Below are positions 15,295 to 21,613 of a stretch of DNA of 32,238 nucleotides, piece after piece (the first letter of the stretch is position 1; each line of letters begins with the position of its first letter). The translations under genes were made by a program, and so were the position numbers. The DNA is from an uncultured bacterium (GTDB lineage: Bacteria; Patescibacteriota; Minisyncoccia; Phycocordibacterales; PALSA-1337), in assembly GCA_963851055.1 (NCBI GenBank), contig CAWKMY010000005.1, forward strand, positions 78,716 through 110,953, written 5' to 3'. The notes under the pieces are model-generated. The model was not told where the DNA came from, did not search any database, and saw nothing but the letters and a program-made list of their open reading frames with translations.

Positions 15295-15555
15295 ACAATG
15301 TGTGATACTAGCGCGATTCGTAGAGTTCCTGATGAGATCGACGGATTAGTACTTCACGGCTCAACACCTTGCGGTGCGTACACCTAAAGCCTATCAACGT
15401 GATCATCTCTCACGGGTCTCGAACGATGCATAATCTTGGGGCTGGCTTCGCGCTTATATGCTTTCAGCGCTTATCCAATCCGAACATAGCTGCCCAGCGG
15501 TGCCGTTGGCACGACAGCTGGTAGACCAGAGGTTCGTTCAATTCGGTCCTCTCGT

Positions 15556-16375
15556 CACATTATCCCCCTATCACTAGGAGTGTAGACTATATCTTTATCC
15601 GTTTTGCCAATTCGGCAAAATGAGGATGTTGGCGTATTACCTATGCGTATCTGCCACCACCTTCAGTTGTGATGACTTTCCAATAGCACATAAGTCCATT
15701 TTCTGGCATAGAGCCATCGAATAAGTCGTTACGGGGTCAAACCTAACATCAGCAACAATTCATTTTTCGTCTTCTTTTTCTTGGTGACGTAATTCTCCTT
15801 CTGAATCACCAGGATGAGATCGACGAGTTTAACGAGTTGCGCATCACTTAGCATCTTGAGTTTAGTCTTCAAAAGGATTTGGCAGGCCTCTTTCAAGGCT
15901 TTTGCTTGAATCCTCTTGAATCTGATATACGGCAACAAACTTGTCAGAATCTCTCTGACCTGTCTGTAACCATTTATTCTCAATTCGGTCATCCCATCAT
16001 TTCTTTTGGAAATATAACCGATATTGAAGACGTCTCTAATCCAATAGAGATCATCTTCGTGTCTGGAATCCTGATAGAAACAGATCGTCGGCATAAATCT
16101 TAGTTTAGATCTATTACCGTCTTTCCGCTTTTTGAGCTGGAGCATAAGGCTCCCGTCACCATCTAGGAATCCCGCGACATATGCATATTTGACATTAGAT
16201 CGACTTCCCACGGTATTGTCTTGAATTTATTGGTCCTCAAGTGTTACATACACTATTGTATCTCTCCCGACGGACCGTCGCAAGAAAGATTATCAACGGA
16301 TACCGATACATTCAAGATTCCACCGTTATTAGCCACATTGTCATCATGGATTACTCCATGAAGTAGCAATACTTT
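15556..16375 (-). mobile_element. group I intron (820 nt) after U2656 (E. coli numbering), in the sarcin-ricin loop
   Basis: Exons read ...gattctagU | intron ...ataatgtG | acgagaggacc, which restores AGUACGAGAGGACC. An S-like element aaagatatagtcta lies at 15583-15596. The junction could shift by 1 nt because of a shared A. Confidence 0.7.
15729..16211 (-). CDS. single-motif LAGLIDADG homing endonuclease, I-CreI-like
   Basis: 160 aa with a GTG start. YVAGFLDGDGSLMLQLKK and IGYISKRNDG...LLPYIRFKRIQAKALKEACQIL parallel I-CreI (YLAGFVDGDGSIIAQIKP ... LQPFLKLKQKQANLVLKIIEQL) as I recall it. Confidence 0.85.
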   Translation of the reverse strand: MGSRSNVKYAYVAGFLDGDGSLMLQLKKRKDGNRSKLRFMPTICFYQDSRHEDDLYWIRDVFNIGYISKRNDGMTELRINGYRQVREILTSLLPYIRFKRIQAKALKEACQILLKTKLKMLSDAQLVKLVDLILVIQKENYVTKKKKTKNELLLMLGLTP

Positions 16376-16438
16376 ACTAGAATCAAACCCCCTCAAGCAT
16401 CAACGCCTGCAGTAGATAGGAGACCAACCTGTCTCACG

Positions 16439-16842
16439 CATGTTACCAACGATTACTCGTTGCATTGGACTATAGCTTAATCCGCTCATTTGATTGAGTG
16501 TGGATCGTTAACGTTTAGTCTCTACGGGCATTGAATCGCAGTAAACCGTAAACGGTAAACTGTAATCAACTTCCCTCGGTATAACCCGCTTTAAACGGGC
16601 TCCACCGAATCTAGTTAACTTGATCTTCTTGTATTACTACAAGAGACCGCCGTGGTTGATTGGTCATTCCTCTCTCTTTACATCATCTCAATGCGATTTC
16701 GCATATGAAATGTTCAATAAAACGAAAATTCTCGAAGTGATTCAGACTGTCGAATATTCAATTCGCAGTCAATGTGACTTCACACATTTACATAGGATTA
16801 ACACTCTCTATGGTCAGCCATCGAAGCATAATTAAATGCTCA
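16439..16842 (-). mobile_element. ORF-less group I intron (404 nt) after U2593, the classic I-CreI / Cr.LSU site
   Basis: Exons read ...gggttcagaccgU | tgagcattt...ggtaacatG | cgtgagacaggttgg. An R-like ccgtagagactaaac lies at 16513-16527 and an S-like aagctatagtcc at 16467-16478. No LAGLIDADG ORF is present. Confidence 0.75.
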
Positions 16843-18382: not shown

Positions 18383-18724
18383 AGGATAGCGCCCCACTAA
18401 AACTGTCCATCATATACTGTCTCCCGGCGTTTATGCCGCCGAGGTTAGAACATACAAAATTCAAGAATGGTGTTTCATCGACGGATCAATACTCCCCGAA
18501 AGGAACATCTCAAATCCTCCCATCTACGCTACGCATGAATCACGTATGGTCAATACAAAATTACAGTAAAGCTTCTAGGGTCTTTTCGTCTAACTGCAGG
18601 TAACCGGCATCTTCACCGGTACTGTATTTTCACCGAGCAAGTCTCCGAGACAGTTCTCCAGTCATTACACTATTCAACGCGTCGGAACTTACCCGACAAG
18701 GAATTGCGCTACCTTAGGATCGTT

Positions 18725-19503
18725 CTTTTCTTGGATAGCTGTGTAAAACTTTTATATTACTATTTAACAATTATGCTCGTGTTAGCTTCATGTCGCCATG
18801 AAGATCGGACTATATCATCATACTTTGTTCGTCGGTACCAATTTGTGAACAAAATCTGTCTTGCGTATAGTCTCTGAGGATTTTTCTGTTATTAATTCGG
18901 CTATGTTGTACTTTCTCTTTCTGCCTTTGCCTTCATTGAGAGTTTCTCTCAATCGTACAATTTTCTCGAATCCTTCTTTTGTTAGATGCTCCTTTCTAGC
19001 CATCTTTTTGACTATTTCAGAGAAAATCAAGAAGTTCTTCTTTTTATTGGCCGAAAGAAAAATAAAACGGTTGAAAAATGGAATCACCTTTTCCATCAAG
19101 GAATCGATATTCGTCACTTCAAAATAAACTACTCCATCAGATCTTTCGCGTAATGTTCCGCATCCAAATACTTTCTGAATGCGTTCGAGAATCACACGAT
19201 CTTTCTGGGAGATGTTGAATGAAGCGAGTACTTTCCATTTTCCTACATAATCCCGTCTTTTGATCATCGAGATGTTGAAGCTTCCTTCACCATCCGTGAA
19301 TCCGGCAATATAATTGCCGATAGCGAGATCTATGTTATTAAGCCAATGATTATTCATGGCTTAATTCTAACAGAAATCTTTCCTGCTGATTGTCCGCGTT
19401 TCAAAATTTTCACTACTCGAATTGCTTCAAGTGAGTATTTGAACATGCTCGGGGTTTCCAGCATATGGCAAGATTTATTATCGTAACTACAACGATCAAG
19501 TCT
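18725..19503 (-). mobile_element. group I intron (779 nt) after U1917 (helix 69 loop)
   Basis: Exons read ...gtcgtaactaU | agacttgat...ccaagaaaaG | aacgatcctaaggtagcg. P lies at 19456-19466, Q at 19382-19391, R at 18863-18879 and S at 18807-18818. Confidence 0.8.
18818..19357 (-). CDS. single-motif LAGLIDADG homing endonuclease, I-CeuI-like
   Basis: 179 aa. IAGFTDGEGSFNIS, FNISQKD and LMEKVIPFFNRF parallel I-CeuI (LAGFLEGEASLNIS, FNVTQH, LEEKVIPFYEQY). Confidence 0.85.
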   Translation of the reverse strand: MNNHWLNNIDLAIGNYIAGFTDGEGSFNISMIKRRDYVGKWKVLASFNISQKDRVILERIQKVFGCGTLRERSDGVVYFEVTNIDSLMEKVIPFFNRFIFLSANKKKNFLIFSEIVKKMARKEHLTKEGFEKIVRLRETLNEGKGRKRKYNIAELITEKSSETIRKTDFVHKLVPTNKV

Positions 19504-21613
19504 ATAGTTACGACCGACATTCACCAGGGCTTATAACAGTCACCATGTAATCTTGCGACTACACAACGCCGTTATTTGACCTTCTGGCATTGGTCAAGTG
19601 TCACCCCCTATACATCCTCTTGCGAGTTCGCAGGGAGCTGTGTTTTTGTTAAACAGTTGCCAGAGATACTTTAGCTGCGGCCCCTTCCAACAAAATAAAT
19701 TGTAAAAAAGGGCAAGCCTTATTCCGAAGTTACGGCTGCTTTTTTGCCGAGTTCCTTGGAGACCTCTCACTCGTTCGCCTAGGTCTACTCGACCTAACCA
19801 CCTGTGTCGGTTTGCGGTACGGTTTACGTGAAATTATGCTTAGAAAATTTTCTTGGAAGCGTGCTTTATCCTATTTCGCCTTGCGGCATTTTCGCTCTAC
19901 TTGGGGATCATATCGAAATGAGCATCCGGATTTGCCAGGACACACCCTTATAGCACGAACGTTAAATCCAATTATACGCAGGATATACTACGCTTCGTCC
20001 TTCCATCGCATTTCACGCAAGTCACGGAATATTAACCGTGTATCCATCGGGTGCGGCGTTCGCCATCCCCTTAGGACCGACTAACCCTTGGCTGATATAC
20101 ATTGCCAAGGAAACCTTGGTTTTTCGGCGTGCGGGAATCTCACCCGCATTGCGGTTACTTGTGCCAACATTCTTACTTCGCAACGCTCCACTGTGGGTCA
20201 CCCCTTCAGCTTCAATGCGATGCGAATACTCTCCTACCGCTCCGTTTTTCCGAAGAAAAACGAAGCCCTCAGTTTCGGTACGACATTTGAGCCCCGATTA
20301 TCTGCGGCGCGGAATTTCTCGATGAGTAAGCTGTTACGCTATTTTTGAATGATGGCTGCTTCTAAGCCTACATCCTCATTGTCGAAGAAATTCCACCACC
20401 TTACGTACACTTAATGTCGATTTAGGGACCTTAAATTGAGATCCGGGCTGTTTCCCTTTTGTCCAATGGAGCTTAGCCCCCACAGACTAACTGCCGGATA
20501 ATTACCATACGTATTCGGAGTTTGATAGGTCTCGTGAGCTTTCGCCCGTTCGAGACCTTCCAGTGCTCTACCCCGTATGGGTACATCCGACGCGAACCCA
20601 AAAGTTCTTTCGGAGAGAACCAGCTATTACCAGATTCGATTAGCTTATCACTCCTTACCACACGTCATCCGAGAGTTTTGCACGGCTCACCGGTTCGGGC
20701 CTCCATCCCCCTTTCGGGGAACTTCACCCTGCGCATGGCAAGCTCATCTGGCTTCGGGTCTTTAGCAAACTACGAGCGCCCTGTTCAGACTCGGTTTCCC
20801 TGTGACTCCGTCCTCGCGGACTTAGTCGAGCAGCTTGCTAAAACTCGTTGGCTCATTCTTCAATAGGCACGCCATGACGGTGCTACACAATAAGCATCAA
20901 AAAAATGACGCACATTGTGTAGCACCGCTCTGACTCCTTGTAGGCATATGGTTTCAGGTCTATTTCACCGCCCTTTCGGGCTGCTTTTCACCTTTCCCTC
21001 ACGGTACTTGTTCACTATCGGTCTAGAAAAATATTTAGACTTGCCGGTTAGTTCCGGCGGATTCCCCCGAGCTATTCGTTTCCCGGGGTACTTAAGAATA
21101 GAGACAAAGAAGATCCATTATTTTCAGATAAGGGGCTATCACCCTCTGGGGCTCGTCTTTCCAGACGATTCTCCTAATAAAAGATTTTTTGACTTCTCTG
21201 CTATAAATAGCACGTCTCTACCTTGCAACCCTCAACCAAAATCGCATCGCGTTTCCGCTTCTGCCTTTCGACAGGGCGGAAGCCGCCCTGCGATTTTGGT
21301 TAAGTTTAGTCTTCTCCGCGTTCGCTCGCCGCTACTGACGGAATGCATGTTTGTTTATTTTCCTCCTGGTACTGAAATGTTTTACTTCCCAGGGTACGCT
21401 CCTCTATAGAGTAACTATAGAAGTCGTCGAGGTTCACTCGACGGGGTTTCCCCATTCGGACATCTTCGGATCAAAGGTTGCTCGGCACCTCCCCGAAGCG
21501 TATCGCCGCCACGCCGCGTCCTTCATCGCTTTTTCTAGCCAAGGCATCCACCATACGCCCTTAATTTCCCATCAGGAAATCTAAGAACCGCTACTTAATA
21601 TCACTTACATTGC

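Follow-up and report, generated by a model that had tools for sequence, protein, structure and literature searches.

The 23S rRNA locus and its four inserts

The stretch of DNA analysed here (the window; 32,238 nucleotides (nt) of contig CAWKMY010000005.1, assembly GCA_963851055.1, from an uncultured bacterium) carries on its minus strand a 23S ribosomal RNA (rRNA) gene that is broken by four large inserts and is followed, 67 nt downstream of its 3' end, by a 5S rRNA gene. The 23S gene was mapped against the Escherichia coli 23S rRNA (locus L001, positions 1479-4382) by BLAST, by direct reading of the junctions and by MAFFT global alignment of the joined exons, and the three were concordant. 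The exons and inserts, each insert being labelled by the E. coli position it follows, are listed below in window coordinates with the 5S gene:

15326 to 21574, minus strand: 23S rRNA gene, five exons (~3040 nt) and four introns (3209 nt), ends approximate within a few nt
21574 to 19504, minus strand: exon 1
19503 to 18725, minus strand: intron 1 (L1917), 779 nt, after E. coli U1917
18724 to 18383, minus strand: exon 2, 342 nt
18382 to 17177, minus strand: intron 2 (L2262), 1206 nt, after U2262
17176 to 16843, minus strand: exon 3, 334 nt
16842 to 16439, minus strand: intron 3 (L2593), 404 nt, after U2593
16438 to 16376, minus strand: exon 4, 63 nt, E. coli 2594-2656, between introns 3 and 4
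16375 to 15556, minus strand: intron 4 (L2656), 820 nt, after U2656
15555 to ~15326, minus strand: exon 5
15258 to 15151, minus strand: 5S rRNA gene, RF00001 68.1 bits

Blocks collinear with E. coli are broken after 1917/1918, 2262/2263 and 2593, and the BLAST alignment resumes at 2657. The three inner exons measure 342, 334 and 63 nt against 345, 331 and 63 nt in E. coli, and the first four nt of the shortest, exon 4, form the P10 pairing of intron 3 while its last four form the P1 pairing of intron 4. A preliminary description of this DNA, made from the letters alone, had given the same four insert sizes and insertion points, which the E. coli mapping reproduces exactly, and the same exon spacings, which the junctions and the alignment bear out. 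It had also put half of the locus down as intron, and 3209 of ~6250 nt (51%) proved to be so. At all four junctions the 5' exon ends in U and the insert ends in G, a regularity pointed out in the same description and read directly here.

Relatives were collected by searching GTDB species genomes with the FtsW protein, which is encoded ~1 kb downstream of the 5S gene. All 80 loci returned came from metagenome-assembled genomes (MAGs) of Patescibacteria, Parcubacteria or Paceibacteria, several of them labelled Taylorbacteria, with 58-84% amino acid (aa) identity in FtsW, the best match being OY969557.1 (locus L002; 84% identical). Judged from these relatives, the host of the window is a Parcubacteria/Paceibacteria-type bacterium belonging to the candidate phyla radiation (CPR). 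Neither of two window proteins used as queries had an exact match, and the genome itself seems to be absent from the collections covered. The order 23S-5S-open reading frame (ORF)-FtsW is conserved across dozens of Parcubacteria MAGs, and the FtsW loci therefore supplied orthologous 23S genes. In the intron-less relatives L005 and L021 the DNA runs uninterrupted through the junctions predicted for the spliced window RNA, GTAACTAT|AACGATCC, CTATCCT|CCTAAAG, AGACCGT|CGTGAGAC and TCTAGT|ACGAGAGG, mismatching them at 0-4 positions in 30 nt; this is the strongest evidence for the predicted intron boundaries. The rule of exon U and terminal G also extends to 57 of the 58 inserts extracted from the related loci at six sites, the odd one (L045, at L1931) ending in T. 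In locus L030, a listed exception, the insert is at 2504 but was taken out in the 2500 register, which puts its printed borders off by 4 nt.

All four sites lie in functional centres of the ribosome, as had been proposed: site 1917 is in the H69 loop, site 2262 closely follows the P-loop helix H80 on its 3' side, site 2593 is in H93 adjoining the peptidyl transferase ring, and site 2656/2657 falls within the sarcin-ricin loop sequence AGU|ACGAGAGGACC. None of the four inserts is a simple, coreless hairpin at the tip of H9, H25 or H45, as expected of intervening sequences of the RNase III type; all of them interrupt universally conserved 23S sequence and have group I cores. The Rfam model of the bacterial large subunit (LSU) rRNA, RF02541, aligns on the minus strand from model position 14 to 2915 with 1569 bits. 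At its gathering threshold the gene is returned in two pieces broken at the introns and the last ~640 nt are missed, a behaviour that makes the locus useful for the annotation of rRNA genes in CPR genomes.

Domain I of the mature 23S rRNA is also longer by ~104 nt, which follow E. coli ~271-289 (window 21180-21283, minus strand), in a region that is variable among relatives. This segment includes a 66-nt near-perfect hairpin (z -4.05), and its appearance is that of an expansion segment or of an RNase III-type intervening sequence, not of an intron.

Group I cores and LAGLIDADG genes

The Rfam group I intron model (RF00028; curated gathering score, 50 bits), searched over a 7-kb region with permissive filters, matched within each of the four inserts:

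17832 to 18377: RF00028 match in intron 2, 45.3 bits, E 2.9e-9, full-length alignment
16446 to 16737: RF00028 match in intron 3, 38.7 bits, E 2.6e-7
18786 to 19069: RF00028 match in intron 1, 36.1 bits, E 1.6e-6
15564 to 15732: RF00028 match in intron 4, 24.1 bits, E 6.3e-3, 3' half only

Intron 3 contains no ORF. Its canonical guide, CACG|GCGGUC at intron positions 189-198 (window 16654 to 16645, minus strand), precedes a P2 with a GNRA cap, after which come P3-P9 and the terminal guanosine (omegaG). The fold was assessed by alignment and RNAalifold across the L2593 family, which comprises the window intron and 28 homologues. In this family 96% of the cells of P1, P10 and P2-P9 are paired, against 32-40% when the partners are slid; 26 of the 49 pairs show compensatory changes, the covariation score is 0.41 against 0.05-0.09 in the slid controls, and none of 500 shuffles reached the observed covariation. 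The guide is invariant in the family, pairs with both exons (P10, 4 bp) and sets U2593 opposite G in all 29 sequences, and the resulting 11-bp P10+P1 was reached by 15 of 2000 shuffles. A second candidate guide, an AUGG/ACGG motif near the 5' end, was dropped because the splice-site U would face A and because the motif is missing from the short members.

Intron 4 has its guide, GCUA, at intron positions 9-12 and its omegaG at position 820. Its helices are P2 UCAUGGA-GUAA-UCCAUGA, P3 UGGC/GCCA, P4 ACGGUG/UACCGU, P8 and P9 CUCCUA-GUGA-UAGGGG, the loop that holds its ORF is closed by a P6 stem, and the ~90 nt between P7 and P3' look like the P7.1/P7.2 of subgroup IA. No convincing P10 was found for this intron by guide scan and pair counts. 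The L2656 family alignment holds six sequences, namely the window intron and five homologues, among them L057 (316 nt), which is without an ORF, and L011, whose ORF is decayed. The hand-derived P1-P9 has 96.6% of cells paired and 14 of 51 pairs with compensatory changes, against 33-47% of cells paired in slid controls; the structure was derived from the window sequence and is somewhat favoured by this, and the margin over the slid controls is still large. A U.G wobble at U2656 is present in all six members, and in L011 one of the compensatory pairs reaches into the exon, where U has become C while the guide has gone from GCUA to GCUG. In both families the core helices P3-P9, including P7 with its R and S elements, are kept by compensatory changes, and this maintenance of the fold implies selection on ribozyme function.

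For introns 1 and 2 the homologues were too few for covariation statistics, and the core rests on the RF00028 alignments and on the textbook P, Q, R and S elements. The core is common to the two introns, which are 97.6% identical over 41 nt of it. The P/Q/R/S strings quoted in the preliminary description (atatgctggaa and atcagcagg among them) number four, and each is found at just two places on the minus strand, one in intron 1 and the other in intron 2.

The helices of intron 1 were read from the sequence by hand. Its guide, GAUCGUU|GUAGUUAC at intron positions 7-21, is 15 nt long and contiguous, forming a P10 of 7 bp with the 3' exon AACGAUC and a P1 of 8 bp with the 5' exon GUAACUAU that includes the U1917.G wobble and grows to 10 bp with the next two intron nt. 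None of 2000 shuffles gave a contiguous P10+P1 as good as this one of 17 bp. The intron is without P2 and continues with P3 UCUUGC/GCAAGA, P4 UGCUGG/UCAGCA, P7 AGACUA/UAGUCC, P8 UUUGUUC/GAACAAA and P9 CUUCAUG-GCGA-CAUGAAG, with omegaG at position 779. A homologous L1917 intron in L011 is 83% identical, and that of L002 has an identical 5' end.

Intron 2 begins with a 5' hairpin at positions 1-29, which is followed by an exon-binding segment, GUGGCGCC, at 33-40 and by the guide AGG|AGGA at 75-81. Its further helices are a GNRA-capped P2, P3 GUUAGC/GCUAGC, P4 UGCUGG/UCAGCA, P7 AGACUA/UAGUCC, P8 and P9 CUUCAUG-GCGA-CAUGAAG, and in the RF00028 alignment its core comprises P5 and the elements Q AUCAGCAGG, R CCUCAGAGACUAUA and S AUGAUAUAGUCC. 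The P10 is ~3 bp long, the endonuclease ORF stands after P9 and omegaG is at position 1206. The L2262 family further includes L019, L028, L069 and L125; the last of these is a metagenomic intron of 967 nt (Ga0208768_1001080, minus strand; intron at reverse-complement 6539-7505) that was the only L2262 intron among 80 loci returned by a single metagenome scan whose pattern, CCGTGGCGCCYCNRGAG, was too GC-generic. Scans of introns 2 and 4 for a contiguous guide gave nothing above chance, and their guides were placed from their position before the GNRA-capped P2 and from family comparison.

The P6 of intron 2 is extended by ~272 nt (window 17915-18190, minus strand), closed by a long stem and with no recognisable ORF. 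This extension may be what is left of an earlier endonuclease gene standing where intron 1 has its ORF. A 102-aa ORF called there (17856-18164) had no Pfam match and was treated as spurious.

Three of the inserts carry genes for LAGLIDADG endonucleases, as stated in the preliminary description, and all three genes are intact:

18818 to 19357, minus strand: intron 1 endonuclease gene, 179 aa, single LAGLIDADG motif IAGFTDGEG
17172 to 17837, minus strand: intron 2 endonuclease gene, 221 aa, two LAGLIDADG motifs, LLGDG and FMDDG
15729 to 16211, minus strand: intron 4 endonuclease gene, 160 aa, single motif VAGFLDGDG, GUG start

All three scored above their Pfam cut-offs and keep the acidic LAGLIDADG residues. 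The intron 1 protein matches LAGLIDADG_1 (2e-21, 77.2 bits; cut-off 23.1) and, in the PDB, the half-domains of I-SmaMI/I-OnuI (1e-37 to 1e-39) and I-Vdi141I, an archaeal rRNA-intron enzyme (3e54; 6e-19). The intron 2 protein matches LAGLIDADG_2 (1.4e-47, 162.2 bits; cut-off 25) and I-SceI over nearly its full length (8.5e-26), and the intron 4 protein matches LAGLIDADG_1 (2.7e-9, 38.3 bits; cut-off 23.1) together with I-MsoI (1.6e-23), I-CvuI (1e-14) and I-CreI (1e-7). The three endonuclease types that had been announced stand as three lineages (I-OnuI-half/I-Vdi141I-like, I-SceI-like and I-MsoI/I-CreI-like), but they belong to only two Pfam families, two to LAGLIDADG_1 and one to LAGLIDADG_2.

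The ORF of intron 1 starts in L6, runs through P6', P7, P3' and P8 and stops where the 3' strand of P7 begins, and that of intron 4 starts in P4'/P6, its last codons and UAA stop overlapping P6' and J6/7. The ORF of intron 2 has its start codon in the 3' strand of P9 and crosses the 3' splice site: its last sense codon, GCC, consists of omegaG, C2263 and C2264, and its UAA stop is formed by exon positions 2265-2267. The excised intron 2 would therefore be without an in-frame stop, and normal termination would need the unspliced precursor. The L125 endonuclease, which is identical to that of the window at 114 of 222 aligned positions, reads through into the exon likewise, and the ORF-less members of the L2262 family retain the 3' tail GUAACAnnAUG.

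Predicted splicing and competing explanations

From the boundaries, the cores and the family comparisons together, we put at roughly 0.88 the probability that this is a CPR 23S gene interrupted by four mobile group I introns, at 1917, 2262, 2593 and 2656. Splicing itself we infer from three things: the structure of the inserts, the selection acting on it, and the fact that the sites they interrupt are essential. Going by intron anatomy and the established chemistry of group I introns, the whole 6.25-kb locus would be transcribed and each intron would fold into a P3-P9 catalytic core, its internal guide pairing with the last nt of the upstream exon to form P1, with the splice-site U opposite G in introns 1, 3 and 4. 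An external guanosine would then attack after the splice-site U, and the freed 5' exon, aligned to the 3' exon by P10, would attack after the terminal G. Ligation of the exons would leave a continuous rRNA of ~3040 nt with its functional centres intact. The three LAGLIDADG enzymes would cut intron-less 23S alleles at the same sites, the intron being copied in by recombinational repair, and the uneven occurrence of introns, of ORFs and of decayed ORFs among close relatives fits the usual cycle of invasion, endonuclease loss and intron loss.

Several observations weigh against this interpretation. In the covariance-model comparison that the preliminary description had named as a check, RF00028 matches lie in all four inserts and the LSU model falls on the minus strand, but all four RF00028 scores (24-45 bits) are below the gathering score of 50. 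Large ORFs and extensions within the loops cost score, and in intron 4 the ORF separates the two halves of the core; the E-values are significant in the 7-kb search, and a survey of CPR rRNA genes likewise relied on sub-threshold E-value matches to the group I model (Tsurumaki et al., 2024; PMC11270868). A group I intron in the 23S gene of Simkania, as cited in the same survey, stays unspliced. The Rfam alignments of the 5' halves of introns 1 and 4 fall inside the endonuclease ORFs and are unreliable; they were rejected, and the helices were re-derived from homologues and by hand. The P1 helices of introns 2 and 4 are only ~4 bp long, and in shuffles of the single sequences they do not exceed the chance level. 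In the guide of the window intron 2, GGAGGA (18302-18308, minus strand), an A stands opposite U2262, where L019, L028, L069 and L125 have G as part of a GGGGG run. A U-A pair at the splice site is expected to slow the first step of splicing, as known from mutagenesis of the Tetrahymena ribozyme, and the A opposite U2262 could mean that intron 2 is spliced more slowly or with the assistance of protein. Lastly, the 5' splice site of both the L2593 and the L2262 families is held in a competing hairpin of greater stability.

In the L2593 family this hairpin, which we name P1a, is a 13-bp helix in which the exon sequence UUCAGAC.GU and intron positions +1 to +4 pair with a downstream intron segment:

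16741 to 16754, minus strand: P1a segment of intron 3, UUCGACAGUCUGAA, intron positions 89-102, from RNAalifold

RNAalifold prefers P1a over the canonical guide as the partner of the L2593 5' exon. Across the family 98.4% of its cells are paired and 5 of its 13 pairs show compensatory changes; in L068 and L076 the exon change G2588A is matched by a change from C to U. U2593 faces A within P1a in 26 of the 29 sequences. The canonical guide lies ~90 nt beyond the P1a strand, directly before the GNRA-capped P2, and the two pairings are mutually exclusive. The L2262 family has the same layout, in which the exon sequence GGCGCUAU pairs with the intron segment GUGGCGCC (window 18343-18350; AUAGCGCC in L028), an internal loop of the exon-intron hairpin contains the splice site and the guide AGG|GGGA stands just before P2. 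The combination of P1a with a distal guide 75-190 nt downstream suggests, as far as the sequences go, a conformational switch from P1a to P1 or a bipartite recognition of the 5' exon.

The irregularities of intron 2 can also be explained in another way, which we regard as unlikely: that the inserts derive from group I introns but one or more have lost the ability to act as autonomous ribozymes, intron 2 being the best candidate and splicing slowly or with help from its own LAGLIDADG protein as a maturase or from a host factor. Besides the A opposite its splice-site U, where four relatives have G, intron 2 has a P1 of ~4 bp, a P10 of ~3 bp and a 5' splice site within the internal loop of a long exon-intron hairpin, and it must accommodate the 272-nt P6 extension and 660 nt of ORF between P9 and the 3' splice site. 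Some LAGLIDADG proteins, such as I-AniI, do act as maturases. Set against this, the catalytic core of intron 2 is the best Rfam match of the four (45.3 bits), neither omegaG nor the conserved 3' tail GUAACAnnAUG has been lost, and an insert next to the P-loop that could not be spliced should be lethal.

Taking the P1a layout, in which most members lack the reactive U.G pair, together with the stop codon of the L2262 ORF in the downstream exon, one might go further and see these rRNA introns as regulated and not as simple ribozymes, a proposal that we consider doubtful. If it were true, an obligatory switch from P1a to P1, or the bipartite recognition, could time splicing relative to transcription or ribosome assembly, and the exon-located stop, present in two independent members, would couple endonuclease expression to delayed splicing.

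Far less probable is that one or more inserts are not spliced with ligation, being either retained in the mature rRNA, as cited for Simkania, or excised without ligation to leave a fragmented 23S. Intervening sequences that fragment the rRNA are frequent in the 23S genes of bacteria and suspected in CPR (Tsurumaki et al., 2024; PMC11270868), but H69, H93 and the sarcin-ricin loop, in which inserts of the window lie, should lose their function through added RNA or a break, each of the four inserts has a terminal G and a guide that pairs with both flanking exons (though no convincing P10 was found for intron 4), and the compensatory changes that keep the fold speak for selection on ribozyme function. 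An assembly artefact merging strain variants or different organisms, to which differing intron content among close relatives (hence plausible mixed populations) and the many related contigs that break inside the 23S gene, a region hard to assemble, might point, is least credible of all, because the exons are collinear and 90-98% identical to L002 across the whole gene, each window intron occupies a site with homologous introns in relatives, and the genes flanking the locus in the 32-kb window are normal and keep a conserved order.

Relatives, known systems and neighbouring genes

The reading as four group I introns is preferred to these alternatives. The relatives show inserts at the same sites and at others:

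Site 2593: inserts in 35 related loci
Site 1931: inserts in at least 12 loci
Site 2500/2504: inserts in 4 loci
Site 2262: inserts in L019, L028 and L069
Site 1917: inserts in L011 and L002
Site 2656: inserts in L011, L034, L057, L064 and L081

The 17 complete 23S genes among the relatives hold between 0 and 4 inserts each at group I sites, in a mosaic pattern. The closest relative, L002 (6682-7604, 8267-8682), has an L1917 intron of 697 nt and an L1931 intron of 212 nt, separated by a micro-exon of 14 nt (AACGATCCTAAGGT), and an L2593 intron of 416 nt; it is without the L2262 and L2656 introns of the window, and introns have therefore turned over between close relatives.

Insertions in CPR rRNA genes are said to have been first noted by Brown and colleagues in 2015. 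In the survey of 348 CPR 23S genes by Tsurumaki et al. (2024, J Bacteriol, PMC11270868), 82% had insertions of at least 100 bp, 433 insertions matched the group I model, the average was ~1.2 group I introns per 23S gene, and the maxima were 16 insertions in one rRNA gene and 5,750 bp of inserted sequence in one 23S gene. LAGLIDADG_1 ORFs were concentrated there at 1917, 1931, 1952, 2593, 2604 and 2657, 62 LAGLIDADG_2 ORFs were found in 23S insertions, ORF-less and ORF-decayed versions occurred at the same sites, and one CPR endonuclease, I-ShaI, was shown to cut its target (PMC11270868). The window agrees with these insertions in host clade, in the clustering of introns in the 3' half of the gene (domains IV-VI), in the sites 1917, 2593 and 2657, which are hot-spots with LAGLIDADG_1 ORFs in the survey, in the occurrence of LAGLIDADG_2 in 23S and in having versions with an intact, a decayed or no ORF at one site, and we find no difference in kind (PMC11270868). 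The statement that intron-bearing rRNA genes occur in CPR bacteria is well documented by this survey, while the description of the present gene as a very dense case was overstated, given the maxima above and the 0-4 inserts of the relatives. Four introns exceed the CPR average of ~1.2 and tie the maximum among the relatives fetched; the gene is no outlier. Of the recurrent sites 23IS6-14 of the survey, the text gives 1917, 2593 and 2657 by position; 2262 is not named there and may be one of the numbered sites 23IS9-11 (PMC11270868). Among the loci fetched here 2262 is recurrent (L019, L028, L069 and L125). Searching the literature for sites named L2262, L2656 or L2657 brought up nothing of relevance.

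The 23S gene of Synechococcus sp. C9 likewise has several endonuclease-encoding introns, three in number (L1917, L1931 and L2593) against four in the window (Haugen et al., 2007; PMC1995217). Its L1917 intron (743 nt, with a single-motif endonuclease of 181 aa) closely resembles that of the window (779 nt, 179 aa): in both, the ORF extends from P6 through P7, P3 and P8 and P2 is lacking (PMC1995217). The L2593 introns differ, that of the window having no ORF and no P7.1/P7.2 between P7 and P3', and neither L2262 nor L2656 appears in the table of bacterial endonuclease-encoding introns given there (PMC1995217). In Coxiella, according to the 2007 paper as cited in PMC11270868, a short exon also lies between two group I introns and L1917 is shared with the window, but there are only two introns and one of them is without omegaG, whereas all four inserts of the window end in G. 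The short inner exon measures 63 nt in the window and 14 nt in L002.

Enzymes of the I-CreI/I-MsoI/I-CvuI type are encoded in chloroplast LSU rRNA introns of Chlamydomonas and its relatives at L2593. Intron 4 of the window resembles those introns in its single-motif endonuclease of the I-CreI/I-MsoI family, placed in L6, and in its extra helices between P7 and P3', as in subgroup IA3 introns; unlike them, it places an enzyme of this family in the sarcin-ricin loop at L2656, while the L2593 intron of the window is ORF-less and of a different structural type from the chloroplast L2593 introns. Intron 2 resembles the yeast mitochondrial omega intron (L2449) in encoding a double-motif monomer related to the omega enzyme I-SceI, and differs from it in its site (2262 against 2449) and in having an ORF that follows P9 and ends in the downstream exon.

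The window is a good and complete example of a phenomenon documented across CPR, and it leaves what is known of CPR rRNA genes unchanged. Its use lies in resolving a multi-intron CPR 23S gene to the base, at four sites and with endonucleases of three lineages, alongside matched relatives that are without introns or without ORFs. It offers candidates for meganucleases that target new rDNA sites (1917, 2262 and 2656), and a case in which to study how an essential single-copy rRNA gene tolerates mobile introns in H69, in the peptidyl transferase region and in the sarcin-ricin loop.

Neither a 16S rRNA gene (Rfam) nor a tRNA gene (ARAGORN) was found within the 32-kb window, and the 23S-5S pair is therefore not linked to the 16S gene. 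The genes on either side are of kinds ordinary for a bacterial chromosome, among them those for SecD, SecF, FtsW/RodA and glycosyltransferases. A promoter-like sequence, TTGACT-16-TATACT, stands at 21783-21810 on the minus strand, ~210 nt upstream of the 23S 5' end; a scan of the region for promoters and terminators gave counts at or near chance, and this site is therefore only a lead. Just upstream of the 23S gene, a small ORF at 21922-22122 (plus strand) is followed at 22128-22409 (plus strand) by an ORF for a 93-aa protein resembling ParE/RelE (HigB)-like toxins, with a borderline Pfam score of 24.0 bits against a cut-off of 24.4; the two ORFs are likely a type II toxin-antitoxin pair. Further away and unrelated to the introns, the minus strand encodes a 1012-aa protein with an LCAT-type lipase/acyltransferase domain (26950-29988) and a 277-aa protein with a BRO-N domain (30882-31715).

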